DNA of 64,000 nt from a virus (Duplodnaviria; Caudoviricetes). Location: IMG/VR virus record IMGVR_UViG_3300020577_007013. One strand, given 5' to 3'. Each line of letters opens with the position of its first letter. Position 1 is the stretch's first letter. Both the position numbers and the translations under genes were made by a program. Below are positions 3,308-54,394 of the stretch, one piece after another. Below the pieces are notes generated by a model that was not told the DNA's origin, searched no databases, and saw nothing but the letters and a program-made list of their open reading frames with translations.

Positions 3308-3372
3308 GAATATTTATAATAAGCTTCGAGAGACTCGACTTACGAAATTTTTCCTGAAGGGACTAACTCCCT

Positions 3373-4137
3373 ATGAAAAGGATTCTCCTGTTCTTCTCTA
3401 TTGTGCTTTCTATTAAAGCTTCTCCGAAAATTGTAGCAATTGCATTAGACGGTGTAAATGAAGAAGAAGGAATAAGAGAAAAGCTAATGAAATTCGGTAA
3501 GTATTACAAATACTGGTTCGGTAAATTGAAACAATGTAGAGTAGAAAGAACCGGAAATATGAGTCTTCCGGCTTATGCAAATTTTTTATCAGGTACCTCC
3601 AATCACAATGTTAAGTCCAATGATGTAGATGAGAAGATTAATAGGAAGACTTTACTCGATCTCTTTCCTAACAGTCAATTGTTCTCTGCATGGAGTCCTA
3701 TTCTCTATGTGGTGGGAGAATCAGAAGATAATGCTCATATGACTTCAGCAGAGTTTTACCCAAGAAAAGGAGATGATAGAGACATCTTAGAGAATTTCAA
3801 GAAAAAATACAATAGACAACAATTTGCTTTTATACATTTTTCTGACGGAGATAATTTCGCTCACTCTATGATGTATGAGAAATACAGAAAAGCTGTCAAT
3901 AAAGAAGTGAGATATGTGAAAGAGATCATCGACTTTGTTGAAGATGATACAACCGTAATAGCTTTCACAGACCATGGAAGAGGTCTTGGACATGATTGGA
4001 CTTCACATGGAGATTGGTTAGACGAGTCCGGAGATATCTGGATGGTGGTCTATTCTAAGAATAAACTCGATCTATCAAAATTCAAATGTGGACATGTAGA
4101 ATTGCATCATCTGATCAAGTCGATTTTAAACCGTTAA
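3373..4137 (+). CDS. Alkaline phosphatase-superfamily metalloenzyme with signal peptide
   Basis: IALDG, SLPAY, HFSDGDNFAH and FTDHGRG..HG motifs; hydrophobic N-terminus. Confidence 0.8.
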   Translation: MKRILLFFSIVLSIKASPKIVAIALDGVNEEEGIREKLMKFGKYYKYWFGKLKQCRVERTGNMSLPAYANFLSGTSNHNVKSNDVDEKINRKTLLDLFPNSQLFSAWSPILYVVGESEDNAHMTSAEFYPRKGDDRDILENFKKKYNRQQFAFIHFSDGDNFAHSMMYEKYRKAVNKEVRYVKEIIDFVEDDTTVIAFTDHGRGLGHDWTSHGDWLDESGDIWMVVYSKNKLDLSKFKCGHVELHHLIKSILNR

Positions 4138-5228: not shown

Positions 5229-5627
5229 TTAGTTCAGTATGTCCAAAAGTTTCTCTCTATATCTGTTGTCTCTTTTCATGTAGAATGGACTTATCTCTAT
5301 GGCTCTGAATCCTTCAGGAAGTTCAAAGTCATACTCTACTAAGTCAAGATCTTTCTTTTTCTTGAGAATCAGTTGTATGAATTCCTCTTCCTCAATGCCT
5401 TCGTAGTTATTTGTGGAAGTGACAAGAAAAGTTGACTTATCTTCTGTAGTGAAAATGGTATTGTTTTGGTAGAAATCTCCAAATCCTATGTTCTGTCTAA
5501 ATCTCGTTGCATAGAAAAAGAGTTTAGGATTATCTCTGAATTTGAACTTAAGACATGAGCAGTCAGCAATTGATCCTTGATATCTTCTTACATCTATACA
5601 TTGAACAAATCCAGAAAGGTCACGCAT
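5229..5627 (-). CDS. Hypothetical protein with the shared C-terminal tag
   Basis: 132 aa; ends RYREKLLDILN. Confidence 0.7.
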   Translation of the reverse strand: MRDLSGFVQCIDVRRYQGSIADCSCLKFKFRDNPKLFFYATRFRQNIGFGDFYQNNTIFTTEDKSTFLVTSTNNYEGIEEEEFIQLILKKKKDLDLVEYDFELPEGFRAIEISPFYMKRDNRYREKLLDILN

Positions 5628-6081
5628 CTTTTACCAACTCCATGACTTTATGATGGTAAGAAATTGGAAGAAGCAATTTGTTGATAGGAAAAATCTGAAA
5701 TCCTTGAGACTCAATCTCCTTGTCAAGATTCTTTGCTCCTCTCATATAAGGATCTTTGATAATGGAAGCAACTTTTGTAAAGTCTGTAAAGCTGACATGA
5801 CTGGAAATAAAGATTCCTTCTTTGGTTACTCCCACTGAAGTGACTGAGATTTTGAGAGAAGATCCTAATGTGTCAAATGGTTCGCAGATCACAAGATAGT
5901 TTTTCAATTGTCTGAAGTCTGGATGATTGACAGGTTGATCTGTAAAAGAGTATCTCCCAAAATCAACTGCAAACTCCTTGAATTTATTGTCTGTTTGAAA
6001 TTCTTTGGATTGAAAATGATTCGGGAAAAAATACTTCTCCAGTACTTTTTCAAGAATGTCAAGTACTAGAGTTGGGTTCAT
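5620..6081 (-). CDS. Hypothetical protein with the shared C-terminal tag
   Basis: 153 aa; ends SYHHKVMELVKDA. Confidence 0.7.
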   Translation of the reverse strand: MNPTLVLDILEKVLEKYFFPNHFQSKEFQTDNKFKEFAVDFGRYSFTDQPVNHPDFRQLKNYLVICEPFDTLGSSLKISVTSVGVTKEGIFISSHVSFTDFTKVASIIKDPYMRGAKNLDKEIESQGFQIFPINKLLLPISYHHKVMELVKDA

Positions 6082-6084
6082 TTG

Positions 6085-7098
6085 TTATAGTCTCTTTGTT
6101 CTTTTCTTCTTAAAACAATTTGCATTGTAAAAGTCTGTCATATTCTTTCTCATCCAAGCAGCAGGACTCTGTATTTCGTTATCTAAGACTTTCCTTAATT
6201 TAGGAATCCATCCTAGCTTAGAAAAGTCTATTCCAGAATTTAGAATCTTAGATTCCAGTCTCTTGATTTTTTCATACTTAAGTTTTTTATTCTCTTGTCT
6301 TTTATGTAGTTTTCTTCCTCTACAAGTTCCTAGTCTTTGTTTTTCTATGATCTCCTGAATATCATATTTAATTGACTTTTTTTCTTTCTCTTTTAGAAAA
6401 TTCAAGAACTTTTGAAATTCTTCATTGGGATTTTTATAAAAATTTACTCCAGCAATTCTGTAAATTATCCATCCGTCTGACTCTAACTCTAAGTCTCTTT
6501 TTTCATCATGAAGAATTTGTTTTTCCTTTAAATGCTGTTTTCCGTCCATCTCTAAGTCGATCTTAAATTCTAGAATAGCAAAGTCTAGAAAGTATCTCCC
6601 ACATCTGAATTGAAAGACATGATCTATTTTATTTTGAATAAGAAGAGACTCTAAGATTGATTCCAATCTAGACTTATTATTTATCATTTTCTTAGAATGA
6701 TACCAATTATTTCCTCTCCCTTCTCTATGAGCTTTTTTATGAGACTCTGAGAGTCTTCTTTTTGTCTCGTCACTTTTTGATAATTTTCTAGTAGGATTCT
6801 CTATCCAATTTTTTTTAAGTGACTCACTAAGCTTCTTTTTGATAAGGTCAGATTTCTCTTTTCCGTAAAATTCTTCCATAGAAAGTCCTTTTCTGGACTT
6901 AATCTGAATTCCGAGTCTTTCAAAATATTCTTTTTTTCTCCTTTTAGGAAATTTTCCTTTACAAGACTTTGAATGTATTGCCCTATTATGCTTTATCAGA
7001 AAATTACATTTCAGACATTTCCAATCTTCTGTGTAGAGATGTCTGTATTCGTCTTGTCTTTTTTCTCTTAGTTGTGTCCTTTTATTTCCAGATTGCAT
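6085..7098 (-). CDS. Free-standing homing-endonuclease-like protein (NUMOD3-like repeat plus DUF559/Vsr-like PD-(D/E)xK domain)
   Basis: SDETKRRLSESHKK; YFLDFAILEFKIDLEMDGKQH...DEKRDLELESDGWIIYRI. Confidence 0.8.
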   Translation of the reverse strand: MQSGNKRTQLREKRQDEYRHLYTEDWKCLKCNFLIKHNRAIHSKSCKGKFPKRRKKEYFERLGIQIKSRKGLSMEEFYGKEKSDLIKKKLSESLKKNWIENPTRKLSKSDETKRRLSESHKKAHREGRGNNWYHSKKMINNKSRLESILESLLIQNKIDHVFQFRCGRYFLDFAILEFKIDLEMDGKQHLKEKQILHDEKRDLELESDGWIIYRIAGVNFYKNPNEEFQKFLNFLKEKEKKSIKYDIQEIIEKQRLGTCRGRKLHKRQENKKLKYEKIKRLESKILNSGIDFSKLGWIPKLRKVLDNEIQSPAAWMRKNMTDFYNANCFKKKRTKRL

Positions 7099-7122
7099 TG
7101 TTTATTAAGTTATAGTAGTATA

Positions 7123-7160
7123 AAACGAGGCCCTAAGATATAGCTTTGTACCAGGGCCTC
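7123..7160 (-). terminator. Rho-independent terminator ending the ncRNA
   Basis: GAGGCCCT...AGGGCCTC followed by GTTTT on the - strand. Confidence 0.6.
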
Positions 7161-7605
7161 AACCATTTCCATGGTCATAGGCAATTAATGAGATAACTTT
7201 TCCATTTAACTGTAAGCTAATTTTTATTAGAGACGTCATAGCATTCGACTATTTCGGCCCTCATACAACAATGGGACTTATTGTATCAGGCGCCGAAATT
7301 GGGAGTTCAACCCAAACCTTCTCTTGATTTGTCTTACAGACTCGATTTATCTCTACCTACTATACTAAGATTAGGGTGAATAATCTGAGTTTCATAAAGT
7401 CCATCAACCATTTCTGATTGACGCGTTTACCTTTCGCCATCTCCACGTTCAGAATACCTTTTTCAGATACTCTCAGCGTGGAGACCTCTTTTGACAGAGG
7501 AAGGACTTTTTAATTCAGTCTTATTTTCAATCTTAGTCTGGGCGACGGTTCCTATGAACCGTCTCACCCTTTGCTCAACCTAGATAGCGAATCTAGTTGA
7601 GCTAA
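7123..7605 (-). ncRNA. Large structured ncRNA with two circularly permuted tRNA-like (Y-RNA-like) domains
   Basis: ~490 nt ORF-free region packed with stems; T-arm, loop-closed acceptor, D-arm order at 7229-7324 and 7396-7509. Confidence 0.75.
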
Positions 7606-7610
7606 TTTTC

Positions 7611-8339
7611 TCATCCGAAGATGAACTTCATTATGTCATTTCCAATTGTAGATCTTTCAACCTCAACTGAATTTGCTTCCTCTCTCGCAACCTTGACAGC
7701 TTTAGAAAGCTTGTCAATTTTATTTAAGAGGTCATTCTTTCTGTCCTGAGTTGTCGTACCAGAAAAACGAATTGTTGTGAACTGACCGACCACTTCGTCT
7801 CTGTAGAGAATTTCTGATTGTTCAGGATGTTTGTCAGTAGCTTTAGCTTTTGTAAAACTGAAAGGTTGCTTTAACGTTCTGTTTGTGCTTCTACCTTCAG
7901 TTTTGAAAAGACCACCGTCTCCTAAAGTCCATTTTTCAGCAGGATCTTGAACTGGGAATTTGTCGACAAAGGTCTTCAGATCTACCAACTGCTTCTCTAA
8001 GAAGATCAGATGAGTTGCAGGAACATCAGAAGCAATTACAGTACCGTCTACTGTAATGTTAGCTTTCGCTTTACAGTTTCCGTTATCGAGAGTTGCGACA
8101 ATGTTGATCAGATCGACAGTAGAGTCGTATGCATCTTTAATAGATTGCTCTACTGTGTACTGAACGATCTTAGACTCCGGTGGAAGAGTATCTTTCGAGT
8201 CGTCTGCTAAGGGCTTGTAAGTCTTATTGAATCCTTCGAAAAGATCTGATTTTTGGAGTTTGTGATACACCTCAGAGATCTTCGAAGTTCTTCTTGATTT
8301 TTCACCATTTGCAATGGCGATTACTTGTGTTAATTTCAT
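7611..8339 (-). CDS. Conserved uncharacterised coiled-coil protein, putative ncRNA partner
   Basis: KLTQVIA, TYKP...LPPE, VPATHLIFLEKQL, ATDKHPEQ, FSG and AREEAN match a widespread bacterial/phage hypothetical family (recognised from memory). Confidence 0.8.
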   Translation of the reverse strand: MKLTQVIAIANGEKSRRTSKISEVYHKLQKSDLFEGFNKTYKPLADDSKDTLPPESKIVQYTVEQSIKDAYDSTVDLINIVATLDNGNCKAKANITVDGTVIASDVPATHLIFLEKQLVDLKTFVDKFPVQDPAEKWTLGDGGLFKTEGRSTNRTLKQPFSFTKAKATDKHPEQSEILYRDEVVGQFTTIRFSGTTTQDRKNDLLNKIDKLSKAVKVAREEANSVEVERSTIGNDIMKFIFG

Positions 8340-8361: not shown

Positions 8362-8574
8362 TCAGATCTCTGAAACTATTTGTCGAATTTTCTCTTTATA
8401 GAGAACTTCGGTGCTCGTCTCTTCCTTAGTTCTGACTATGGTGACTTTAGGCCATTCATAAGAGAGGCTTCCTCTATTGATACTAGAGGCTCCGATTCTG
8501 ACTATTTTCAATACGTTTTCAGGCATTATCTGAAAGTTAGATTTAATGAATTCTTCTGAGAACATATTCCTCAT
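8362..8574 (-). CDS. Mini-protein: copy of MCP residues ~75-114 plus C-terminal tag
   Basis: 22/40 identical to the MCP at 41577-43067. Confidence 0.85.
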   Translation of the reverse strand: MRNMFSEEFIKSNFQIMPENVLKIVRIGASSINRGSLSYEWPKVTIVRTKEETSTEVLYKEKIRQIVSEI

Positions 8575-8711
8575 TTCTCGTCGACTATCTTTTTGATTTT
8601 CTCTTTAAAATCATTTTCTACTTTGCTAGGTTTTTTCTCTTTAGGATCCAGACTATCATTGTCATTAGCCTTAATCCATTTCATAAAGTCTACGAATGTG
8701 TTAAGCCTCAT
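8571..8711 (-). CDS. 46-aa mini-protein with C-terminal tag (not in ORF track)
   Basis: MRLNTFVDFMKWIKANDNDSLDPKEKKPSKVENDFKEKIKKIVDEK; overlaps both neighbours. Confidence 0.75.
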   Translation of the reverse strand: MRLNTFVDFMKWIKANDNDSLDPKEKKPSKVENDFKEKIKKIVDEK

Positions 8712-8949
8712 TCAAAATTTCTTTGACCTTTTCTTTATAAGTGGATTCTACTGCAGAGACCGAAACCGGAGAAGAATAGACTCTGTCAATGAAGTATATC
8801 GCATCGTCAGGAGCTACCATCGGCCATTCAGTAATCAATGACTTAGCTACTAAATGAGTAGAATAGATTCTACCATTTTTATTTGATTTCTTCAAGAATC
8901 TCCTTGAGTTTGTCACAGTAAACTTTCTTATGAGCTTCTCTTGTGTCAT
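8701..8949 (-). CDS. Mini-protein: copy of MCP residues 108-129 plus tag (likely TTG start at 8895)
   Basis: TEWPMVAPDDAIYFIDRVYSSP is 16/22 identical to the MCP; AAGGAG precedes the TTG at 8895. Confidence 0.85.
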   Translation of the reverse strand: MTQEKLIRKFTVTNSRRFLKKSNKNGRIYSTHLVAKSLITEWPMVAPDDAIYFIDRVYSSPVSVSAVESTYKEKVKEILNEA

Positions 8950-9082
8950 TTGTAAGAGTGACTTCAGCCATAGTAGTATAAGAGTATCCTATACTATTGA
9001 CTTTTCCCATCTTGACACCTCCGTAGAACATTTCAAATTGTCCTGAACTCAGGTCTAGAAATCCGTGAGAACTACTTGACAA
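8879..9082 (-). CDS. Mini-protein: copy of MCP residues 279-293 plus tag
   Basis: NSIGYSYTTMAEVTL vs NILGYSYTRMAEMML (10/15). Confidence 0.8.
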   Translation of the reverse strand: MSSSSHGFLDLSSGQFEMFYGGVKMGKVNSIGYSYTTMAEVTLTNDTREAHKKVYCDKLKEILEEIK

Positions 9083-9284
9083 TGTCTTCTACCTTCTTTA
9101 CATATTCTTTTTCAAGTTCGGTTTTTTCTTTGATCTCACCTTGAACCCATTCCATAGTATATAGCTCCATGGCTTTCTGAACATGTGGATTATTGAAATA
9201 TAAATATTGGCTCTCTAAAAGTTCAGCGGCTTTTCTAGCTTTACTGTCATCTAGGAAATATTTCTTGATCTTGTCAATCCACAT
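9072..9284 (-). CDS. Mini-protein: copy of MCP residues 55-73 plus tag
   Basis: SKARKAAELLESQYLYFNN vs SRARNTALALENQERYLKN (9/19). Confidence 0.75.
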   Translation of the reverse strand: MWIDKIKKYFLDDSKARKAAELLESQYLYFNNPHVQKAMELYTMEWVQGEIKEKTELEKEYVKKVEDIVK

Positions 9285-9522
9285 CTTCGATAATTTTCTC
9301 TATTTCATCCTTGTAGTTAGTTTTCATTTTTGGATCTAACTTAACTCTTGGTTGTGGATATTGTCTCATGAATCCTGTGCAATCTATCCAGTCATCGAAG
9401 ATAAGTTGCATCTCAGATCTAGTGACTCCACCAAAGTCCATGCTATTATTGATCGAGACTATTCCACCGATCTTTCGACCATTCTGATCGAACACTCCTC
9501 CATCTCTGAGTTCAATTATCAT
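9274..9522 (-). CDS. Mini-protein with C-terminal tag
   Basis: 82 aa; ends NYKDEIEKIIEDVD. Confidence 0.75.
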   Translation of the reverse strand: MIIELRDGGVFDQNGRKIGGIVSINNSMDFGGVTRSEMQLIFDDWIDCTGFMRQYPQPRVKLDPKMKTNYKDEIEKIIEDVD

Positions 9523-9685
9523 CTAACATGTCCAAAAGCTTTTGCTTCTGTTCTTCTTCTTGAAGTTTTCTATTGAGTCGCTTTAGATTTTTGACTTCAT
9601 CCATTTGATGAATCAGCTCATTGACCTTTTCTAAATAGTCGGAGTCGCCTTCATTGTCAGACTTTGAGAATTTACTTGTCCTCAT
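9512..9685 (-). CDS. 57-aa mini-protein with tag (not in ORF track)
   Basis: MRTSKFSKSDNEGDSDYLEKVNELIHQMDEVKNLKRLNRKLQEEEQKQKLLDMLDDN; overlaps both neighbours. Confidence 0.7.
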   Translation of the reverse strand: MRTSKFSKSDNEGDSDYLEKVNELIHQMDEVKNLKRLNRKLQEEEQKQKLLDMLDDN

Positions 9686-10163
9686 AGGTCTCTTCTGTGT
9701 CGATTTTTAGTTCAGTCATTCCACTAGGCTTTCCATCTAACATCATTGTTGGAGGACTTATAAAAGGTAGCTGAGTTATTGGAAGATAAGGTGCATGAAT
9801 GTAGCCTTCAGTTAATTCAGAAAGTTCCATGACTTCAGGCTCTTTCTTTTTATTCTTGAAATTTGACATAAGAGCTTTGACATCCAGCTCTCCGTCTTTA
9901 TTGAAAATTTCTTTCTTTTTGTATTCTCTCTTAAAGAGATCTTTGAATTTTTCCCAAAGAGACTTTTTACGTGGAGAGTAATGCTTAAGTTTTCCGTACA
10001 TTCTGAAGAAGTCATCAGTCATTAATTCTTCATGAGTCTTCTCTTTTCTTTTCCAGAGTTTTTTCTGGAGTTTTTTCCAAAAAGACTTAGGCTTAGGTTC
10101 TACATACTGAAGACCAGGTTCTCCTAAATCTATGTAAGCTTTTATTTTCGAAATTTCAGACAC
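9672..10163 (-). CDS. Array protein with two amphipathic repeats and a gp23-type GY.HAPY.P motif
   Basis: KSFWKKLQKKLW and KSLWEKFKDLF; EGYIHAPYLPI. Confidence 0.75.
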   Translation of the reverse strand: MSEISKIKAYIDLGEPGLQYVEPKPKSFWKKLQKKLWKRKEKTHEELMTDDFFRMYGKLKHYSPRKKSLWEKFKDLFKREYKKKEIFNKDGELDVKALMSNFKNKKKEPEVMELSELTEGYIHAPYLPITQLPFISPPTMMLDGKPSGMTELKIDTEETYEDK

Positions 10164-10396
10164 TAAAAAAGATCCTTGATTTTTTGCTTGTACGAAGTCA
10201 ACAATTCAGTTGGATTATAATAGAGAGGCATTGATAGATTTTTAAGCCACTCAATTACTCTCTTGTCTCTTTCTCTTTGTCTAAGCTTATGTTCTTCAGC
10301 TATAGCATTTACGAGCATAAGCTCTATGTCTCCTATCTTAGAGAATGGACTTGAGTCTACCAACATAGTCATCCTTAACTTTACTTTTTCTTTCAT
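10163..10396 (-). CDS. Mini-protein: copy of MCP residues ~298-320 plus tag
   Basis: IGDIELMLVNAIAEEHKLR vs LGNVEDMLVRAVGDEHALR (10/19). Confidence 0.8.
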   Translation of the reverse strand: MKEKVKLRMTMLVDSSPFSKIGDIELMLVNAIAEEHKLRQRERDKRVIEWLKNLSMPLYYNPTELLTSYKQKIKDLF

Positions 10397-10529
10397 CTTC
10401 TACTACAGTTACAAAGCCATAGCCGATAGGGTCTTCATCAAAGAAATTCTTAGGAACTCCGGTAACTTTTGCTACCAGGTCGTAGAGTTCTCTGATCTTC
10501 TCATCTGTAAGTGATTCGTCTTTATTCAA
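10338..10529 (-). CDS. Mini-protein: portal-like segment plus tag (TTG start overlapping the VWA stop)
   Basis: LYDLVAKVTGVPKNFFD vs portal LLNALVVSTGLPRNLLD. Confidence 0.7.
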   Translation of the reverse strand: MNKDESLTDEKIRELYDLVAKVTGVPKNFFDEDPIGYGFVTVVEDERKSKVKDDYVGRLKSIL

Positions 10530-11935
10530 ATGATTGACCTGAAAGCTAACTTCGCTTGTGAAAGATCTTCGATATTTCCTGTATCCATGAAAGACAAAGA
10601 CTCTGAAAGTTTGTTGCAATTTTCAATGTTACCCATATCTTCCAAGAATACGAAGTGGAATTTCTTTCCTTGTACTCTATGCTTAATAAGTTCATTCATG
10701 GTAGGGATTCTGATATCCTCTGTACCGTCTGTTACCATAATGATGTCCGACTTATCAAGACCGTCTACTTCATTCTTGTCAATGTCCTTCACAGCATAAG
10801 TGAGAGCCATGTCCATGTCAGTACCACCATCTGGATGTGTATTGAGAATGAAGTCAAGAAATGTATTCCAATGAGCTCTTCCTTTTAGAACGAACAAGCT
10901 TCCTAAACGTCCTTCAAACCATCTGCAATAGAATGTCGTTCCGTCTTTCATGGCTTTCTTCGCTAAAGCGATTGCCACTGCTTTAATGAACATTTGACGA
11001 TTGTTTTCATGAGTGGATCCTGAACGATCTAACAAAGCATAGAGACATTGTTTAAGATCTTTTCTCTCTTTGTATTTCATGACTCTCAATGATTTGGTCA
11101 TGATCTTACGGTCAAGAACATCATCAATTGTAACTTCGAACTTGACTGCCTTGCTTACATCGTTCATTTTCTTCATCTTAGAATAGTGAAGATTGGAAGA
11201 AATGTTTTCAGTCTCGTAGAGTTTTCCTCTCTTCGATTGACTGAAGAATGATGTCTCCAGATTTTTAGCGATCTCAAAAATGGAAGCATTTTCATTAGAG
11301 AGAAGTTGCTGAACCATTTGCTTGATCTTGAGCTTCTTGTCCAAGATCTCTTTATAGGTCCTATCAAAGTGACCCATATCTTTTGTTGAACCTGTATTTT
11401 CGGTTTTACCGTCATCTTCAGGAACATCGTATGAGTAGTTCATTATGTGCTCGAATAAGAATCCGAATGAAGAGAAGATCTTGGATACATTTTGTCCAGT
11501 TGATCCTCCACCCATACCACCGTTAGGCTGACGACCAGCTTTTTGATTTTCAATGATAGCTGAGAAGATCTGACAAACGAAGTCAAATTTCTCCTCTAAA
11601 GATAGAGACTTGGATTCAATGTACTGCTCAACAATATCAGACTCAGCAAAATGAATAATGTCCATTTTGAGTTTGAACATCTGAGCTTCAGTGTGCTCAA
11701 TATTATTGACTTCACCTTTTTTGTATCTGTCGATCGCATTTCTTGAAATCTCCAGATCTGATGACATATACTTGAAACAATTTGTCTTCCCTTGAGCTAT
11801 GAGACAAAGTGTATCTTCAAGAACCTCTTTTGGAAGTGCTGAAAGAGAAGGGTACTTAGCGTACCCCTTGTTCACCATGTCGGTATAGAATGTAGGGAGA
11901 TCTATCTTTATGAATCTCATTTTACTTCTTATCAT
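10526..11935 (-). CDS. VWA-domain protein (ViaA/CoxE-like)
   Basis: MIDAS LLDRSGST, GGTD, MVTDG. Confidence 0.88.
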   Translation of the reverse strand: MIRSKMRFIKIDLPTFYTDMVNKGYAKYPSLSALPKEVLEDTLCLIAQGKTNCFKYMSSDLEISRNAIDRYKKGEVNNIEHTEAQMFKLKMDIIHFAESDIVEQYIESKSLSLEEKFDFVCQIFSAIIENQKAGRQPNGGMGGGSTGQNVSKIFSSFGFLFEHIMNYSYDVPEDDGKTENTGSTKDMGHFDRTYKEILDKKLKIKQMVQQLLSNENASIFEIAKNLETSFFSQSKRGKLYETENISSNLHYSKMKKMNDVSKAVKFEVTIDDVLDRKIMTKSLRVMKYKERKDLKQCLYALLDRSGSTHENNRQMFIKAVAIALAKKAMKDGTTFYCRWFEGRLGSLFVLKGRAHWNTFLDFILNTHPDGGTDMDMALTYAVKDIDKNEVDGLDKSDIIMVTDGTEDIRIPTMNELIKHRVQGKKFHFVFLEDMGNIENCNKLSESLSFMDTGNIEDLSQAKLAFRSII

Positions 11936-13094
11936 CCATTGGGAAGATCTCGTCTTCTGAAAGTCCAGATTGTGAGACCTTATCTTCGATCAATTTCTTA
12001 AGATCTTTTGCTTTCTCAAGAACTGATTTTTGGCAATTAGCTTGAGTCCATTCAGAGATTTTATCTTTGATATGTGAAGCGAGAGCTGCAAGCATTCTTG
12101 TTCTCTCAAGCTTATCATCATATTTGAGAATCTTAGTGTGAAGAGCTTTCTCAAATTTCATGAGCTCCATTCCCATTGCCATTGATTTTTCTGATTTGTC
12201 AAAGACAGCATCGAATTTGTCTGAGTTCTTGATGTCTCCACCATTCACAAGTGCATATTTAATGCTCTTGAGATTCTCAACTTCAATTGTCTCTTGACCT
12301 TTGAGGAATGCATCAGCTTTAGCGACAAGCAACATTTTATTTTTCTTTCTCGGACTGATACCGATACTTGTCTGCTGTGTGTACTCATCAAGAATTGCAT
12401 CGAACATGATGAGAAGCATATCAGAGAATTGAGGCTTGTATTTCTCAAATTCTTCGTGAAGAATCTTCAGATCATGGAAAGCAAATTTCGGATATTCTTC
12501 GTCAGAGATTCCTCTTAAGAAGTTGGAGAACATTTTGATTCTGCTTTCTTGTTTTACCAAGTCAGCAACTTCAGATGTGAAGAGAATACGATCATAAACA
12601 GCTCGAAGTTCTTTCTCCTCCTCTCTCTCTTGATTCGTTGTCATGATAGCTGTGAGTAGCTTTGCTGGAATTGTTCTGCTCTGTCTCGTAGATGATCTCT
12701 CGTTCAAGATCTCATTTGCAGAAACGAGAAGCTCTTCAGAAGCATTAAAGAATTCGTCCAATCTCGCAAAGTCTGTTGTGAGAAGTGAACCTTCAATGTT
12801 ATGAACGATGTTACCTTTCTTGAATTCCTCAATTGACTGAGGACCCATGATGTATTGGTCGTCCATGAATCTTGTGAACTGTTGTTCAAAGACTGTAGCT
12901 CCTGTAAAGCCTTTAAGAATCTTCTGACTTAGAAGTGTCTTCGCTGTACCTGGAAGTCCTTTTAGAAGCACATGCTCCTTAATGAGAATTGCCAATTTTA
13001 TTTGGTTTGTCTCATACTCTCTTTCAGAGAAAAAGTCCTCCATCTTTTTGAAATAATCTTGATAGTCTTGTTTAAGTTTTTTTACTTCCTTCAC
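11922..13094 (-). CDS. MoxR-family AAA+ ATPase (RavA-like)
   Basis: EHVLLKGLPGTAKT, LDEFFNA, ILNER, AVYDRI, ISPR. Confidence 0.9.
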   Translation of the reverse strand: MKEVKKLKQDYQDYFKKMEDFFSEREYETNQIKLAILIKEHVLLKGLPGTAKTLLSQKILKGFTGATVFEQQFTRFMDDQYIMGPQSIEEFKKGNIVHNIEGSLLTTDFARLDEFFNASEELLVSANEILNERSSTRQSRTIPAKLLTAIMTTNQEREEEKELRAVYDRILFTSEVADLVKQESRIKMFSNFLRGISDEEYPKFAFHDLKILHEEFEKYKPQFSDMLLIMFDAILDEYTQQTSIGISPRKKNKMLLVAKADAFLKGQETIEVENLKSIKYALVNGGDIKNSDKFDAVFDKSEKSMAMGMELMKFEKALHTKILKYDDKLERTRMLAALASHIKDKISEWTQANCQKSVLEKAKDLKKLIEDKVSQSGLSEDEIFPMDDKK

Positions 13095-13114
13095 TGTGAT
13101 CTCCTTGTGTTTAT

Positions 13115-13615
13115 TTATATAACGTCTTCTAGAATCGACAACAAAAGCTTGCTGTCTTCTCTCTTTTGTTGTTTATAGTGTTCGATGAACTTCGAACCTT
13201 CTTCAAATTCGTTAATGTATCTTCTCATATAGTCTGATTTTCCATGAGAAACTATGTATTCATCATAGAATTCTCTCGTATTTATAATGTCAAGAGAATC
13301 TGTAGGAATTGGAAGCAAGCCATACACAATGTATTCACTTTTTGCTTTTCTATTGTCTTCAACTGGGCAGTTTGTCTGAAACAAATAATTGAGTCCTTCT
13401 GCTCTAGAAGGAACTAAAGTCTGAAAATATTCTATATTGCTTCTAGAGTAAGTCTGACAGAAAGCTGTAGAGCTTAAATCATTGTGATGAAAGTTCCTAA
13501 CATAGAATTCATCTGTAGGAAGCTCTAGATCTCTGACCATTGTCCTCACATATTCGTAATGTGAATGTGTGAGAAAGTTTTTGCCCACACCTAGAAATAA
13601 TTTCTCTAGTGTCAT
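13115..13615 (-). CDS. Hypothetical protein
   Basis: 166-aa ORF. Confidence 0.7.
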   Translation of the reverse strand: MTLEKLFLGVGKNFLTHSHYEYVRTMVRDLELPTDEFYVRNFHHNDLSSTAFCQTYSRSNIEYFQTLVPSRAEGLNYLFQTNCPVEDNRKAKSEYIVYGLLPIPTDSLDIINTREFYDEYIVSHGKSDYMRRYINEFEEGSKFIEHYKQQKREDSKLLLSILEDVI

Positions 13616-14269: not shown

Positions 14270-14578
14270 TCAATCGTCGATAATTATATGGCCGCTTTCA
14301 TTTACTTCAATTAATTCGTGATCCCTAGACACCGAAAAATAAGTGCAAGCGTCTTTGATATATTCCTTGGCTTTTTCGAAGTCTTTAAATTTAACTTCGA
14401 AAGTCCATCCTCCACTGACATAGCTAAAGCTTTTCCATTTACCCCCTTCTTTTTTATAAGGAACATAGTCGTACCCTTCTTTCTCTATTTTGTAATGGAC
14501 AGGAAGAGACTCTCTAGGAGTTTTCAAGACTTCTGGAAATCTTTCCTTAAGTGGTCTCTTAGATAAAGACACTGCCAT
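14270..14578 (-). CDS. Hypothetical protein
   Basis: 102-aa ORF. Confidence 0.6.
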   Translation of the reverse strand: MAVSLSKRPLKERFPEVLKTPRESLPVHYKIEKEGYDYVPYKKEGGKWKSFSYVSGGWTFEVKFKDFEKAKEYIKDACTYFSVSRDHELIEVNESGHIIIDD

Positions 14579-14945
14579 AACGTTCCTTCATAAAGTTCGA
14601 CCATAGACTTATCATATTGTCTCTTCCGTTAATGTTTGATGAATGGACTGTGAATCGTTCTACTTTACTGAGATCAATTTTTCCGTCAAGATCCATTTCG
14701 ACGAGTTTATTTAGGAAGTCTTTTCCTGTCTTCGACTCAAGTCCTAGGTCATGGTCAAGAGTCATCATTCTAGGAACTCCTAATTTAAGAATGAGCTCTA
14801 TAGCTTCATCATAAGTTCTAGCAATTTTCCAATTCCACTCTTCTCTCTTATACTTCTTCTGTCCTTTACAAGACAGTTCAGAAATAGCATTGGGAAATAT
14901 GTAATCGAGTTCCCTAATGTCGTCTAGGAAAAGATCATAGAGCAT
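14559..14945 (-). CDS. Cyclic-phosphate-processing receiver-domain protein
   Basis: LFLDDIR, ARTYDEA, LDHDLG..KTG, VHSSN..G. Confidence 0.8.
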   Translation of the reverse strand: MLYDLFLDDIRELDYIFPNAISELSCKGQKKYKREEWNWKIARTYDEAIELILKLGVPRMMTLDHDLGLESKTGKDFLNKLVEMDLDGKIDLSKVERFTVHSSNINGRDNMISLWSNFMKERYGSVFI

Positions 14946-16131
14946 GATTTGATATATTAAAGATTTCCTTAAGCTCTTTCAAAAACTTAGGATCTTTACA
15001 GAACTCTTTAGAAGGTTCATCAGATATCTTAGCGACAGGTTGTCCATTAATTTCTGACAACTTGATTACCATTTGAGGATTCTTTTTTCCGATATTGCAA
15101 GTCAGATGAGTACCTATTCCGAAGACGATTTTGATTTGACCATGAAATTTTTCATAGATCTCTGATGCTTTCTCAAATGTAATTGAGTCACTGAAGATTG
15201 CAGTTTTTGTCATTGGATCAATTTTCGATTTTTTGAGTTCCTGAATTAGAAAATCACACCATTCAATAGGATCACCGCTATCATGTCTGAATCCTGAAAA
15301 ATCAAGCAGTTGGGTTGAGAATTCTATCAATTGTCTAGAATTTATCGTGTCGGTCAAGGCTATATGATATTGTTCAGGATAGACTGAACTCCACATAGAG
15401 AAAGCTTCGTCTTGGAAGTATTGAATTGGATTCTGTCTTAAAACCTGAAATGCTTGGATGTACTCATGGGCCATAGTTCCAACTGCTCTAAGAGAAAATT
15501 TCTTAGCAAAGAAAACATTGCTCGTTCCAGTAAAATTCTCTGGACAATTTGTGAGAATCGCTCTTAAGATTGCTTCATGATGCCTAAATGATGCTCGTCT
15601 TCTAGTTCCGTAGTCTGAAAATTTAATTTCCTTAGCTTCCTTCTTTATGAAGGAAAGACCGTCCACTGTCTTATGGCAGAGTTCCAGTTCTTCTACCATG
15701 CTGAGACCGAACTCTCTTTCGAAATAGACTTCATTAAGGATGGATAGAATCGGTATCTCGAAGTAGGTGATCTCTTTCCAATTTCCTGAAATTTTGATTT
15801 GAAGCTTCCCATCCTGTTCATAGACATTTACATTTGATCTCTTCAACTTCAGAGTGGAGAGAAACTTAAGATAGTCTCTACTGAAGAGTCTAAAGGAATC
15901 CAAGTATTCGATGTCTTCTTTTGTGAAAGTGAGAGTACAAAGATGGTTAATTTCTTTTTCAATATCGTCTTTCCATTCTAGAAGATCGACTTCTGAACGA
16001 CAGATTAATTCGAAAGAAGCTGAGATATTCTCCCCTTTGAATCTCTCGAAGACGCAATTCCCCATTGTAAATTTGTAGAGATCCGTATCAAGTAGACTAT
16101 TGATGACCATAAATTTGCTCCGACATTTCAA
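14935..16131 (-). CDS. pncB: Nicotinate phosphoribosyltransferase
   Basis: SLLDTDLYKFTM, DYGTRRR, GTSNV, GTMAHE, RHDSGDP, FGIGT, VAKISD. Confidence 0.93.
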   Translation of the reverse strand: MKCRSKFMVINSLLDTDLYKFTMGNCVFERFKGENISASFELICRSEVDLLEWKDDIEKEINHLCTLTFTKEDIEYLDSFRLFSRDYLKFLSTLKLKRSNVNVYEQDGKLQIKISGNWKEITYFEIPILSILNEVYFEREFGLSMVEELELCHKTVDGLSFIKKEAKEIKFSDYGTRRRASFRHHEAILRAILTNCPENFTGTSNVFFAKKFSLRAVGTMAHEYIQAFQVLRQNPIQYFQDEAFSMWSSVYPEQYHIALTDTINSRQLIEFSTQLLDFSGFRHDSGDPIEWCDFLIQELKKSKIDPMTKTAIFSDSITFEKASEIYEKFHGQIKIVFGIGTHLTCNIGKKNPQMVIKLSEINGQPVAKISDEPSKEFCKDPKFLKELKEIFNISNHAL

Positions 16132-19746: not shown

Positions 19747-19783
19747 TTGGTTCTCCTTTTGTAATTGTTATTCTGACAGTTAC

Positions 19784-19822
19784 AATATATAAAGAATCAT
19801 CGAAATTGAACAAAAAACGTCA
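19784..19822 (-). promoter_or_regulatory. Conserved sigma70-type promoter TGACGTTTT-TTGTTC-N18-TATATT
   Basis: Same motif and spacing at 25320-25358 and 54248-54286. Confidence 0.75.
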
Positions 19823-19830
19823 TAGTCCTA

Positions 19831-19906
19831 GAGGTCACCCGAGTCACTCAGCCGAAAAGTTAACCTAGGTGATCCTAGGGTATCAAGGTGACTGGGAGGA
19901 CTCGGG
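19831..19906. repeat. Promoter-upstream inverted-repeat element, copy 1
   Basis: CCCGAGTC...GACTCGGG arms; blocks shared with 25386-25462 and 54316-54388. Confidence 0.65.
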
Positions 19907-25278: not shown

Positions 25279-25319
25279 TTGTATCTCCTTTCTTAATTGG
25301 TAGTTATTGTAACAATATC

Positions 25320-25358
25320 AATATAATAAGATTACAGTATAGTGAACAAAAAACGTCA
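25320..25358 (-). promoter_or_regulatory. Conserved promoter TGACGTTTT-TTGTTC-N18-TATATT
   Basis: Repeated motif with fixed spacing. Confidence 0.75.
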
Positions 25359-25385
25359 TTGCTTACAAGATCCCCAGAACGCTCG

Positions 25386-25462
25386 CGAGACACTTGGTCA
25401 AGAGATCAATATGTATTATAACCTGGCCAATATACAATCAAGGGAGGACTCGGGTGACCTCT
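25386..25462. repeat. Promoter-upstream element, copy 2
   Basis: GGGAGGACTCGGG shared with copy 1; GACTCGGGTGACCTC is the reverse complement of 19831-19845. Confidence 0.6.
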
Positions 25463-25651
25463 GATAGACGAGTATAATATGATTAAGATCTGAGGTCTCT
25501 CAGACCCTTATTTCAAGTGAATTGTCTTTGGTTGAATAGCCGATCTGAAGAAGCTCAATAGGATGCTCTAGCCCATACTCACCGACATTTATGATTTTGA
25601 TTTCTGCATCTTTCGGCACACTTTTTGTCAATTCCAGAAAGTCACCTAAGT

Positions 25652-27058
25652 TCATTGGTACTCCTCTGAGAATTCCAATTCCTCAAGCTCTTTGATGTAC
25701 ATTTTTTCAGGAGTTGATTTTTTAAGCTCTTCAATTTTTTCTTCAATCTCTGAAATCTTCTCTTTGAGTTTATCGATTTCTTCTCCAGTGAGATTGTAGA
25801 TCTTGAGAGAGAGAAGCTCATCAATGTAAGTGAATTCTTCTTTGGTAAGAATCTCCACGCATTCTTTCTTTGATTTCTTGGAGAAGAGTTGAGAGTTCGC
25901 TATGTAGTACTTGATGAACCTCATCTTCTCGTTGTGAAATTTGAGATCTTCAGTCAGTTTTTCGATGAGCATTCTTCTTCTCTGCTCGTATTTCTGAAGT
26001 CGAAAGACTATGAAGTAGTAGATGATGTCTTCAGGAGAATCAAAGACTTTGATCTTACCTTCCTCATCCCATAGAGTAAAATTCTCAGTCTCTCTTTTTA
26101 TGAGCTTGAGTTTCTTTAAGAGTTCTTCATGAAAGAGTTGGGTGGTCTCTCTATAAGTCTTTATCGTAAACTTGAGACCATTCTTTTTATTTGAGTCATC
26201 TGTATGGTCTTTAATGAATCCTTTCTCTTCCAACTTATTGAGATGGTCGACGTAGTCGTCTCTGTACATTCCAATCGGAAGTTCAGTAATCTCAATTGTG
26301 GTAGAGTTTATGATCTCATAATTTCCTTCAATTTCGATTTGTCCTTCATCAGTCTTCCGTATCTTACCTTTGAATCCTTTGTACCAAGGAACGAGTTGAT
26401 CTTTCTTTTGTTTTCCACCTTTAAGGAAGTTGAGAATAAAATCACGAATCTCTTCGGGATTGTAAGCCATTGAGTAGGTCGCGTATCCGACTCCCATTCC
26501 TTCACAACCGTTAATGAGAAGTCCTGGAAGAATTGGAACAAAGTAGTCTGGTTCTATCTTAGATTCATTGTCATAGAGATAATTGAGAATTATATCATCG
26601 TCTTTCTTGAAAATCTTTCTGAAATTTTCAGAGAGATAGGTGAAGATGTAACGTCCTGAAGCTGCTTTACCATCATTGAGTCTTGAGCCATAAGATCCAG
26701 AAGGAATGAGTAAATTTAGATTGTTTGAGCCGACATAATCTTGTGCTAATCCGACAACGACTCCTACTAAATTTGCAGCTCCGTGATTGTAAGCTGTCTC
26801 ATAAGCTACTAAGTTAGCGAGTTGTTCTACCTTGATCTCACCAGCATTCTCTCCTCTCTTAATAAGAGTGTGAATAACTTTTCTTTGAGATGGCTTAAAT
26901 CCATCCACCAACAAAGGTATAGATCTGACATTATCATAAATGCTATACTGTTTATAGTCGTTATGAAAAAACTCCGAAACATCTACTTTGTTAGAGAACG
27001 AGTCTGAGATGATTCTCTCATCTTGTCTTTCTGCAGATTCTTTTTTCTTCTTTGCCAT
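25652..27058 (-). CDS. Type II topoisomerase cleavage subunit (T4 gp52/GyrA-like)
   Basis: RSIP..VDGFKPSQRK, YNHG, AASGRYI, ITELPIG. Confidence 0.95.
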   Translation of the reverse strand: MAKKKKESAERQDERIISDSFSNKVDVSEFFHNDYKQYSIYDNVRSIPLLVDGFKPSQRKVIHTLIKRGENAGEIKVEQLANLVAYETAYNHGAANLVGVVVGLAQDYVGSNNLNLLIPSGSYGSRLNDGKAASGRYIFTYLSENFRKIFKKDDDIILNYLYDNESKIEPDYFVPILPGLLINGCEGMGVGYATYSMAYNPEEIRDFILNFLKGGKQKKDQLVPWYKGFKGKIRKTDEGQIEIEGNYEIINSTTIEITELPIGMYRDDYVDHLNKLEEKGFIKDHTDDSNKKNGLKFTIKTYRETTQLFHEELLKKLKLIKRETENFTLWDEEGKIKVFDSPEDIIYYFIVFRLQKYEQRRRMLIEKLTEDLKFHNEKMRFIKYYIANSQLFSKKSKKECVEILTKEEFTYIDELLSLKIYNLTGEEIDKLKEKISEIEEKIEELKKSTPEKMYIKELEELEFSEEYQ

Positions 27059-27067
27059 CTTATTTCC

Positions 27068-28921
27068 TTACTTTATTGATAGCCATTCTTTTCTATCATC
27101 AGCTCTTTTCTTATTGAAAGCGAGATCCACCATTTCTGAGCAATTTTTGTCAGGAACAAATTGTACGAGATGATTCGTTTCCATATTCTTAAAATAGATA
27201 TCGAAGTCTTCTGGAGTCGATGTTCCCAAACCTTTATAGTGCTTGATCGTGAATTTCAGATCTTGATTTTCTTTATTCCATTTTTGATAATCCTTCTCTG
27301 TAAAGAAACAGAGTGTCTCATCTTTGAGAAAGACTTTCACATAAGGAGTTACAAATCTGTACATGATTCCTAAGTCAAAGAGTTCAGGCCAGAAAGTATA
27401 GAACATATTTATGAGCTGTCCAGTTATCGAGAATCCGTCAAGGTCATTGTCGGTAAGAATTATAATCTTCCCATATCGAATTTGACTGACAGACTCAATT
27501 TTATCTCCGACTTGAAGTCCGATAATTGACATGAGATTTTTGAATTCTTCATTCTCTTTTAGGTCTGCAACTGAAGCTCCTCTAACATTGATCGGTTTTC
27601 CTCTCAACGGAAAGACGGCCATTGTTTTAGGATCTCTCACATCTTTCGGATTTCCTGCTGCTGAGTCTCCTTCAACCAAGAAGAGCATACATTCAGCTCT
27701 ATTTTCTGAAGTAGCGTCGCTAAGTTTTACAATCTTCTTGAGATTTTTCTTATCGACTTCCTTACCCATCTTACGAAGTTCTTTTTGAGCGGCTGCAGCT
27801 TCCTTAGCTGCTATCCAATCTAAGATTTCCTGGATGATTTCACTTTTTATGACCTTTTTAATAAATTTTTCAGAAACAGAATATTCAGATCCGAATGAAC
27901 TCTTCTCGGTTATTAAGTATTCCTTAGTCTGAGAAGCATATTTTGGATTTATGATAGTGCAATCTAAGAAAAGTAGAAAGTGATTTTTTATGTCAGAAGG
28001 TTTGACTTCAGTCTTATGTTTTTTCTCTATATAGTCTCTGACTCCGCTAATAATTTGATTCATCACATAGTCAATGTGTGTACCATCTTTAGTTATTGCT
28101 GAATTTACGAAGCTGACATTCTCAAAGCCGTTTTCAGAAACAGTAACCCCTATTTTCCAATTACCCTCTTCCTCATAGATGCATTCTGATTTATATAAAG
28201 AGACATAGTCTTCAAAATCTTTGAGTTTTATTGTGTCTCCATTTAGCTTTACTTTTAAATGGGTGTTCGTTCCAGCTATGTCCACCACTCTTTTGTACAA
28301 TACAAGCCTTGTATCCTCATCAAGCTTTGTTTTGAGTCTGTCATAATCAGGAAGGTAGCTTATTTTAGTATAATTTTTGTCTGAATCTGTAATCTTCGGA
28401 GTCGACTTCTCTGAAAGATTATTAGAGAATGTCTGTCTAAATTTTTTCTCTCCATCACATGTTTCTACTATGAATTCTTTTGAAAAAACATTTGTAAGAG
28501 TTGCTCCTAAACCATGAGTTCCTACAGTTGTTCGTTGTTCGTCATCATTAAAGTTTGATCCGGCTTTTGTCTCACTAAAAATCATTTCAGGAACGTATTG
28601 ATTATGTTCTTTATGAATGACGACAGGAATTCCACCGTTATCCCAAACAGAAATCCAACCGTCGTCACCAATTTCCACCTTAATTTCATCCAGATTTTTA
28701 TTTCTCTTAGACTCATCAACTGAGTTGGAGATAATCTCATCGAATAATTTTAAAAAAGCTGGAGAGTATGTCACATTCTTTTTTTCCATCTTATTCAAGG
28801 ACGGATTATAAATCCAAGTCAAGTCAGTGTGAGCTTCAGTATTTCCAATATACATTCCAGATCTTTTTAAAATATGATCTATATCGGAAAGCTTTTGATA
28901 TTTTTGCTCAATTGTTTTCAT
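27068..28921 (-). CDS. Type II topoisomerase ATPase/TOPRIM subunit (T4 gp39+60/GyrB-like)
   Basis: HILKRSGMYIG, EIISNSVDE, EGDSA, PLRGK, TDNDLDG, YKGLGT. Confidence 0.95.
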   Translation of the reverse strand: MKTIEQKYQKLSDIDHILKRSGMYIGNTEAHTDLTWIYNPSLNKMEKKNVTYSPAFLKLFDEIISNSVDESKRNKNLDEIKVEIGDDGWISVWDNGGIPVVIHKEHNQYVPEMIFSETKAGSNFNDDEQRTTVGTHGLGATLTNVFSKEFIVETCDGEKKFRQTFSNNLSEKSTPKITDSDKNYTKISYLPDYDRLKTKLDEDTRLVLYKRVVDIAGTNTHLKVKLNGDTIKLKDFEDYVSLYKSECIYEEEGNWKIGVTVSENGFENVSFVNSAITKDGTHIDYVMNQIISGVRDYIEKKHKTEVKPSDIKNHFLLFLDCTIINPKYASQTKEYLITEKSSFGSEYSVSEKFIKKVIKSEIIQEILDWIAAKEAAAAQKELRKMGKEVDKKNLKKIVKLSDATSENRAECMLFLVEGDSAAGNPKDVRDPKTMAVFPLRGKPINVRGASVADLKENEEFKNLMSIIGLQVGDKIESVSQIRYGKIIILTDNDLDGFSITGQLINMFYTFWPELFDLGIMYRFVTPYVKVFLKDETLCFFTEKDYQKWNKENQDLKFTIKHYKGLGTSTPEDFDIYFKNMETNHLVQFVPDKNCSEMVDLAFNKKRADDRKEWLSIK

Positions 28922-30687: not shown

Positions 30688-30739
30688 GTGATTACGTATA
30701 TTATGACTTTCGAAAAACTGTTGAGCTATTTTTAAAGAG

Positions 30740-30771
30740 AGACAGCCGACCGTTTTACTGATCGGCTGTCT
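30740..30771 (-). terminator. Hairpin terminator
   Basis: AGACAGCCGA/TCGGCTGTCT stem after the VWA gene. Confidence 0.65.
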
Positions 30772-30779
30772 ATTGACTT

Positions 30780-36534: not shown

Positions 36535-36600
36535 AATGTTCCTTCCTTAAATTTACTTGAATAACTATATTATGCTCTTCGAAAGAAGACCCACTTTATT

Positions 36601-54201: not shown

Positions 54202-54247
54202 TTAGATCTCCTTTTTTAATTGTCTGATGTATTAACCATCTACATGT

Positions 54248-54286
54248 AATATAATCAATTCTGGCAAAATTGGACAAAAAACGTCA
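54248..54286 (-). promoter_or_regulatory. Conserved promoter TGACGTTTT-TTGTCC-N18-TATATT
   Basis: Repeated motif with fixed spacing. Confidence 0.75.
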
Positions 54287-54315
54287 CAGGTTAAGTTAAG
54301 TAAAGGGAACTCGTA

Positions 54316-54388
54316 GGATCACCCGAGACATCCAGCCGAAATGGATCTCCAGGTCATTCTGGTTATTCATTCCCTGCTGGATGTCTCG
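54316..54388. repeat. Promoter-upstream element, copy 3
   Basis: Perfect CGAGACATCCAGC/GCTGGATGTCTCG arms; TCACCCGAG and CAGCCGAAA shared with copy 1. Confidence 0.65.
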
Positions 54389-54394
54389 TGAGAG

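Follow-up and report, generated by a model that had tools for sequence, protein, structure and literature searches.

Tagged copies of capsid and portal protein segments in a mini-gene array of an uncultured phage

We analysed a 64,000-nucleotide stretch of Caudoviricetes DNA (IMG/VR record IMGVR_UViG_3300020577_007013; hereafter the window), part of a 253,865-bp contig of an uncultured phage, and found that a run of ten minus-strand small genes within it (m1-m10, numbered by transcription order and spanning positions 10529 to 8362) includes five that encode copies of short segments of the phage's own head proteins, four from the major capsid protein (MCP) and one from the portal protein. These five genes (m2, m6, m7, m8 and m10) share a common design, in which the copied head-protein peptide, or core, is joined through a variable linker to a C-terminal amphipathic helix, hereafter the tag. 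Among the main triggers of bacterial immunity are phage capsid and portal proteins, whose contact segments also govern head assembly. A literature search found no description of phage genes encoding tagged pieces of their own capsid and portal proteins, and the tagged, selected copies are a real feature that is undescribed in print; a phage that copies such pieces onto a portable tag and keeps them under selection would be putting structural sequence to a use absent from the searched literature. We tentatively favour a role for the copies in the phage's own head assembly.

Copied head-protein segments in a tightly packed array

The ten open reading frames (ORFs; 46-163 amino acids, aa) abut or overlap at every junction (TTGA, TAGTG, ATGA and several overlaps of 11 nucleotides, nt), as a sequence-only reading of this region (8362-10529) had described, and the start codon of the following gene mostly lies within the last codons of the preceding one. 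The array begins at the stop codon of a gene for a vWA protein (10526-11935), which itself overlaps a gene for a MoxR-type ATPase (11922-13094). Within the array, m2 (10163-10396; gene calls in relatives point to a likely start at 10366 and a product of 67 aa) carries MCP residues 297-326, the start of the spine helix, followed by the tag SYKQKIKDLF; m6 (9072-9284, 70 aa) carries portal residues 53-107, the N-terminal helices, and the tag EYVKKVEDIVK; m7 (8879-9082, 67 aa) carries an MCP strand and helix (278-293, extending to 300 in the related array referred to below as relative B) and the tag VYCDKLKEILEEIK; m8 (8701-8895, 64 aa, TTG start) carries the strand of the E-loop and insertion-domain linker (MCP 103-137) and the tag TYKEKVKEILNEA; and m10 (8362-8574, 70 aa) carries the MCP N-arm (70-114), with the apparent positional equivalent of the T4 Gol peptide, and the tag LYKEKIRQIVSEI. 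No parent was found for the other five: m1 (10338-10529, 63 aa), whose TTG start overlaps the vWA stop codon (TTGA, with ATGA at the same junction in relative B) and which ends in the tag ...DDYVGRLKSIL; m3 (9672-10163, 163 aa), which is rich in lysine; m4 (9512-9685, 57 aa), with the motif DYLEKVNELI; m5 (9274-9522, 82 aa), with the tag NYKDEIEKIIEDVD; and m9 (8571-8711, 46 aa), with the tag DFKEKIKKIVDEK.

The similarity of the cores to their parents exceeds shuffled controls. In Smith-Waterman comparisons with the MCP (41577-43067, minus strand, 496 aa), with 300 shuffles per mini-gene query, m10 matched residues 70-114 (score 123, z 22.7, 24/44 identical), m8 residues 105-137 (score 108, z 17-20, 16/32 identical), m2 residues 297-326 (score 61, z 7.3) and m7 residues 278-293 (score 52, z 5.8, 10/15 identical). 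Under a stricter null, in which the tags were stripped and the best score of each shuffled query was taken across all 65 large proteins of the window, m10 and m8 scored 101-132 against 40 ± 4, m2 scored 61-63 (p ≤ 0.003 in two lineages) and m7 scored 51-52 (p 0.007-0.04 in three lineages), with the MCP as the first-ranked parent of all four throughout. The sequence-only reading had listed a fifth MCP match, m6 to residues 55-73, and this assignment was rejected (z 2.7; the m6 of relative B ranks the window MCP 47th of 78 MCPs). Portal residues 53-107 are instead the first-ranked parent of m6 in all three lineages that bear the gene (score 63-73 against a null of 43 ± 4.5, p ≤ 0.003). Hence the other four of the five proposed MCP matches stand, and the proposal that both MCP and portal are represented holds with an altered tally: four genes carry an MCP piece, one carries a portal piece, and no parent could be traced for the remaining five. 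Across the 280 small ORFs of the window, m8 and m10 alone match any large protein at E < 1e-5. For m1, m3, m4, m5 and m9 no match was found among the large proteins of the 64-kb window, and for m1 no longer relatives were found; a search of m5 against 1.84 billion representatives returned only members of its clade and two repeat proteins judged spurious, one eukaryotic and the other of the DUF3659 type, and an Atlas search with m5 gave nothing usable.

Both parent proteins could be assigned by fold. The AlphaFold model of the MCP (predicted local distance difference test, pLDDT, 82) has the HK97 fold with an insertion domain, and its Foldseek matches (P1 Gp23, E 1.4e-23; phage S6 and T4 gp23, 8e-13 to 8e-11) place it with the T4 gp23-type capsid proteins; PF07068 is annotated on relatives of the window MCP. 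A sequence search of the PDB with the MCP alone gave no match, while a search with the MCP profile returned P1 Gp23 only. The portal protein (50704-52653, minus strand, 649 aa) was modelled with low confidence (pLDDT 57), and among its Foldseek matches listed at E ≤ 0.001 all are phage or gene transfer agent portal or connector chains, with T4 gp20 first, which identifies a portal fold; the Pfam match to Portal_T4 is weak (E 6.5e-4, below the cut-off).

When placed on the MCP model, m10 corresponds to the N-arm directly following the helical propeptide, including a low-confidence stretch (85-96), m8 to the first E-loop strand running into the insertion domain, m7 to the returning P-domain strand and a short helix, and m2 to a loop and the first half of the spine helix. 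Jointly the four cores cover the N-arm, E-loop and P-domain side of the HK97 core and leave the A domain uncovered. The copied elements on the model (N-arm, E-loop strands and spine helix) are ones that form contacts in the fold. MCP residues 83-114 form the most conserved stretch of the MCP family and residues 298-316 the second, and both lie within copied pieces; the copied portal piece is only moderately conserved among portals (88th percentile). The MCP makes up about 2.5% of the coding capacity of the window, yet it is the source of four cores. A predicted complex of MCP 77-496 with m10 (score 0.01, partner fold uncertain) was not used as evidence.

The arrangement of the cores also bears on their origin. 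The m8 and m10 cores overlap at MCP 103-114 and therefore do not derive from one single copy. The sequence-only reading had described the pieces as not in MCP order, a description that falls with the reassignment of m6: the transcript order m2, m7, m8, m10 is strictly the reverse of MCP order (the chance of a monotonic order being 2 in 24). The sequences flanking the cores have no similarity to adjacent MCP sequence, and colinear extension of the cores into neighbouring MCP sequence was rejected on this ground.

The tag (consensus Y-x-x-K-Φ-x-x-Φ-Φ, or Y/F-x-x-K/R-Φ-x-x-Φ-Φ in its wider form) is present on nine of the ten mini-proteins, in eight of which 0-5 residues, mostly acidic, come after the motif. 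The exceptions are m4, where the motif is internal and precedes a coiled-coil-like tail, and m3, which ends in only the beginning of the motif (TYEDK). This pattern was seen at 10 of 164 ORF ends on the minus strand and in none of 998 internal windows, in agreement with the earlier observation that the pieces are fused to other sequence and to a shared C-terminal tag. Codons within the tag vary freely among the mini-genes, and the sole DNA repeats of the array are the tag-coding stretches, which are only 64-72% identical; the tag is therefore conserved at the protein level. Outside the array, two further genes (5229-5627 and 5620-6081; 132 and 153 aa) also end in Y-x-x-K-Φ-x-x-Φ-Φ.

Selection and divergence in related arrays

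Three related metagenome arrays (relatives A, B and C) were gathered by exact-protein look-ups. Relative A is 99% identical to the window at the DNA level from the vWA gene through m5, precisely lacks m6, and is 89.6% identical from m7 through m10, a pattern that marks it as a recombination mosaic with a break at a tag. Directly after m10, relative A has a DUF559/MTES_1575 endonuclease gene, where the window instead has a DUF7873 gene, directly following the array run, and a non-coding stretch of about 500 nt (6085-7098, 7122-8339); this difference represents an indel polymorphism beside a likely homing endonuclease. Relatives B and C share about 79% DNA identity with the window, are colinear with it and retain ten intact ORFs each, so that frameshifts, which inert recombination debris might have accumulated, are absent at this distance. 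In relative C m7 and m9 are without their N-terminal flanks while core and tag are retained. The m5 copy of relative C (7300-7542) ends in HKEKIKRDTKKR, a degenerate or frame-changed tag, with the rest of the gene conserved.

Ratios of nonsynonymous to synonymous change (dN/dS) between the window and relative B are 0.26 for m2, 0.13 for m3, 0.06 for m4, 0.22 for m5, 0.47 for m7 and 0.19 for m10; for m6, m8 and m9 dS is saturated and the proportion of nonsynonymous differences (pN) is 0.10-0.30. Overall the mini-genes range from 0.03 to 0.47, rather than lying near 1 as inert debris would. Within m10, the equivalent of MCP 73-97 (0.03-0.14) and the tag (0-0.27) change more slowly than a patch equivalent to MCP 98-108 (0.3-0.74), and over the five parent-bearing genes in four arrays identity is 71% in cores, 75% in tags and 56% in the remainder. 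Together these values indicate that the mini-genes are coding and under purifying selection, with cores and tags most constrained. Identity between mini-gene and MCP also favours the positions conserved in the MCP family (0.64 versus 0.42, p 2e-4). Core scores are about equal against the phage's own MCP and relatives' MCPs down to about 50% identity, and the copied MCP stretch hardly varies among MCPs with as little as 60% overall identity, whereas the mini-gene copies drift.

Comparison of the cores with their parent genes gave saturated synonymous differences (pS 0.65-1.1), a pN of 0.2-0.37 and exact nucleotide runs of at most 10, and we therefore regard the cores as old copies held by protein-level selection, with no recent gene conversion. 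This bears directly on a group of explanations that we consider most improbable, namely that the matches are non-functional remnants of a second MCP gene, arose by chance, or belong to a DNA-level element such as gene-conversion cassettes or a repeat-spacer array. In their short length, and in the derivation of four from one gene, the pieces do resemble debris. Chance, however, is excluded by the shuffle controls, and a decayed or second MCP gene (a pseudogene or a gp24-like paralogue) was rejected, as the sequence-only reading had also concluded: the cores are 15-45 aa long, overlap in MCP coordinates (m8 and m10), run in reversed order and have unrelated flanks, the ORFs are intact with neither stops nor frameshifts in four lineages, and dN/dS is well below 1 in all four. 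The DNA-level readings (gene conversion, antisense, repeat array) were rejected on the saturated pS, the short exact runs and the confinement of the repeats to the diverged tag-coding stretches.

The array has a restricted distribution. Among viral contigs at a greater distance, ten with an MCP 31-47% identical (five being at least 90% complete) each show only one match, to MCP 66-135, and lack a vWA homologue; in five of the ten that were reassembled, no ORF of up to 160 aa matched the MCP or portal of the same contig at E < 0.01; the array family is therefore limited to a narrow clade. Scans of viral contigs and metagenomes with the vWA protein as query found no relatives, and a collection of cultured phages, queried with the array DNA, the vWA protein and the MCP, held no similar phage.

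The MoxR-vWA pair and possible roles of the array

The two genes upstream of the array form a pair of the MoxR-vWA chaperone type. The MoxR-type AAA+ ATPase (11922-13094, minus strand; PF20030 bpMoxR E 2.8e-26, AAA_5 2.4e-15) is the first gene of the coupled run, and its homologues found by a query with the protein are only 24-27% identical. It is followed by a CoxE-like vWA protein (10526-11935, minus strand, 469 aa), which is coupled in translation to m1 and shares 99% amino-acid identity with its counterpart in relative B (dN/dS 0.009). The vWA protein has no Pfam match and carries motifs resembling a metal-ion-dependent adhesion site (MIDAS), DRSGS...DGGTD...DGTED (DxSxS...T...D), and its nearest Atlas clusters are VWA_2/CoxE (0.97). 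A MoxR-clade ATPase followed by a vWA/MIDAS protein is the arrangement of a MoxR-vWA chaperone pair. Such pairs are present in T4-like jumbo phages, where a role in virion assembly has been proposed, and in the archaeal virus ATV the pair is required for tail assembly (PMC7824862); vWA domains have been proposed to capture a client peptide, after which MoxR remodels the client (PMC7159879).

Just upstream of the MoxR gene (13112-13119) lies a TATAAATA box with an AAGGAG Shine-Dalgarno sequence. The same T4 late promoter box is not enriched in the window (4 found versus 2.6 expected), and the copy before MoxR offers at most a faint indication of timing. A second upstream motif, TCGAA(A/G)-N4-8-(A/T)TAATATA or TATAAATA, occurs on the minus strand 8-20 nt before start codons (30688-30779, 36535-36600, 37835-37873, 3308-3412 and 13095-13140), which suggests very short leaders and perhaps a phage-specific, possibly T4-late-like, promoter class; a strict pattern search of the window gave no enrichment of this motif. 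A candidate TTCGAA...ATAATATA motif yielded no timing, the genes downstream being without known function.

Our leading, though tentative, reading is that the five parent-bearing genes encode interface-peptide mimics or adaptors in the phage's own head-assembly pathway. The copied peptide would bind whatever the parent segment binds in the prohead, be it a neighbouring MCP subunit, the portal or scaffold, or it would be captured, in place of the parent segment, by the co-translated vWA-MoxR chaperone; the tag would dock the mini-protein to a common partner. For a protein that assembles with itself, copying one of its contact segments would be the most direct route to a binder of that protein or of whatever handles it. 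The reading is consistent with matches that exceed shuffles, with intact ORFs and low dN/dS, with the constraint on cores and tags, with the protein-level likeness and retention of MCP-invariant positions, with the location of the pieces in contact elements, with the joining of the array to MoxR-vWA by the TTGA/ATGA overlaps, and with the five distant relatives, in which detectable MCP- or portal-fragment ORFs and a vWA homologue are both missing.

Parallels in T4 point in the same direction. An hhalign comparison of the MCP with T4 gp23 was colinear but weak (E 0.0011, probability 20%) and placed T4 93-122, which we take to be the Gol peptide, on MCP 87-116, in the m10 core. In the T4 prohead the N-terminal region of gp23 (to residue 105) faces the interior and probably contacts the scaffold core, the head-length mutations A94V and G97S lie within this region, and the portal N-whisker is anchored by gp23 M98, H282 and M284 (PMC9546572). 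By the same weak alignment the counterparts of these three residues lie in the m10 core and in the loop that marks the m7/m2 boundary.

Several observations weigh against the head-assembly reading. Mini-gene proteins have changed 13-50 times faster than the vWA neighbour, m6 is dispensable in relative A, and the array is a recombination mosaic, features more in keeping with accessory or conflict genes than with a core assembly factor. The array is also absent from relatives that build their heads from a similar MCP. The tag is generic, being present also on the products of 5229-5627 and 5620-6081, so that the array-specific link to vWA-MoxR may reflect nothing more than neighbouring position. 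Half of the genes lack a head-protein parent, the mapping of T4 residues comes from a colinear profile alignment of low probability (20%), and the partners, the target and the role of the tag, binding included, are inferred.

The rapid change of the mini-genes, their variable presence and mosaicism, and the confinement of the array to a narrow clade are features that a role in immune evasion might explain, and a second reading, which we hold almost as likely as the first, is that the mini-proteins act as decoys or antagonists, showing immutable MCP and portal segments to host factors (Lit-type systems via EF-Tu, CapRel-type sensors of capsid or Avs-type sensors of portal) and so blocking or misdirecting them. 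The copied MCP stretch stays invariant while the copies drift, as expected were the MCP unable to escape by mutation, and m10 lies at the Gol-equivalent position by the weak alignment and on the Gol numbering that we assume. Gol is a 29-residue stretch, the most conserved part of gp23, that binds domains II-III of EF-Tu and thereby activates the Lit protease (PMC3014915), and in the window the most conserved MCP stretch (83-114) and the second (298-316) are likewise those that were copied. The decoy reading thus accounts for the fast evolution, the presence and absence of genes, the apparent Gol equivalence and the choice of invariant segments better than the assembly reading does. In its fullest form the array could conceivably constitute a library of fast-evolving self-epitope antagonists, including a Gol-like peptide, that would blind host sensors or the EF-Tu-dependent Lit route, with the docking tag delivering or stabilising them; we give this form the same tentative standing as the decoy reading in general. 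However, a copy of an activating epitope should itself activate, and the free Gol peptide switches Lit on. A competitor would in addition have to outdo a very abundant MCP or bind the very abundant EF-Tu, the coupling to MoxR-vWA is left unexplained, and the portal piece is only moderately conserved. If the mini-proteins are decoys, they would form a new class of counter-defence and would explain how phages cope with sensors aimed at immutable segments.

Five genes with unrelated bodies share the tag and similar selection, the tag is generic, and genes are gained and lost in modular fashion at tag boundaries, all of which would also fit exapted scraps, that is, head-gene pieces caught by illegitimate recombination in a hyperplastic region whose present function is unrelated to the role of the copied segment. 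We consider such an origin unlikely: all five traceable parents are the two prohead shell and vertex proteins, with four pieces from an MCP that accounts for so small a share of coding capacity, selection has retained residues invariant in the MCP family, and the cores are more conserved than their flanks. Finally, the copying of interface segments, combined with an evolutionary pattern typical of accessory genes, raises the idea that the peptides poison the head assembly of co-infecting related phages. The same MCP stretch is present in the phage's own MCP and in relatives' MCPs, so that self-poisoning would follow unless timing or degradation prevented it, and nothing points to such a safeguard; this explanation we regard as improbable. 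Adaptors of the phage's own head assembly thus remain our leading reading and, if correct, would provide a handle on the role of phage MoxR-vWA chaperones.

Genes of the window include those for a T4-type capsid protein, a portal, an S77-like prohead protease, RIIA, a NAD ligase and a split topoisomerase II. The sole S77 prohead-protease-like domain (residues 49-154, a weak match) opens a 673-aa protein (44191-46212) whose long C-terminal part is of low complexity. The genes for the topoisomerase II subunits (25652-27058 and 27068-28921) are found immediately downstream of an ORF of 413 aa (28908-30149) that has an HNH-endonuclease domain. A gene for nicotinate phosphoribosyltransferase, located a few genes upstream of the MoxR operon, overlaps a small gene annotated in relatives as having a cREC_REC domain (14559-16131). 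A strong sigma-70-like promoter motif, TGACGTTTTTTGT(T/C)CA followed after about 17 nt by TATATT and then by a canonical AAAGGAG ribosome-binding site, occurs repeatedly ahead of genes on the minus strand, at 19747-19882, 25279-25499, 54202-54394 and 41404-41576; these probably represent phage early promoters, and the motif together with AAAGGAG points to a host with standard Shine-Dalgarno usage.

Comparison with known systems

Satellite capsid redirectors (P4 Sid, SaPI CpmB and PLE TcaP) are small proteins that act on the assembly of HK97-fold capsids. They differ from the array in being encoded by phage parasites and in being neither MCP-derived nor tagged arrays.

The T4 internal proteins (IPI-III and Alt; PMC3012670) resemble the mini-proteins in bearing a short, portable terminal tag on unrelated, fast-evolving small proteins. 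The T4 capsid-targeting sequence, however, is N-terminal, about 10 residues long and cut at an L/I-x-E prohead-protease site, whereas the array tag is a helix at the C-terminus; an assignment of the array to T4-type internal proteins was rejected on the position of the tag. The bodies of the T4 internal proteins are also not copies of head proteins, unlike those of five array genes.

The Gol/EF-Tu/Lit system of prophage e14 is comparable in that the m10 core, and in part the m8 core, may occupy the Gol-equivalent position by the weak profile alignment, in that both phages have their most conserved capsid-protein stretch there, and in that a short linear piece suffices for EF-Tu binding (PMC3014915). 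It differs in that Gol lies within the capsid protein and has no separate gene, and in that it is a trigger of defence rather than a known counter-measure.

MoxR-vWA pairs (RavA-ViaA, CbbQ-CbbO, and those of ATV and T4-like jumbo phages, PMC7824862; also in conflict systems, PMC7159879) share with the present locus the pair itself, which here lies directly upstream of the array. For the vWA partners of jumbo phages a metallopeptidase domain has been reported (PMC7824862), whereas such a domain is not evident in the vWA protein next to the array, which has no HExxH in its sequence. A further difference is that no described pair is followed by client-derived mini-genes.

A conceptual parallel is to microProteins and inhibitory protein fragments, which reproduce a single interaction segment of a larger protein and titrate away the partners of that protein. 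By sequence the array genes share with them the relation of a small protein to one segment of a larger, self-assembling one, while microProteins are eukaryotic regulators and inhibitory fragments are engineered. We know of no microProtein from phages, nor of any that occur as an array with a shared docking tag; if the mini-proteins do act as adaptors or regulators of assembly, they would represent the first case in nature of fragment-type (microProtein-like) regulation of capsid assembly.

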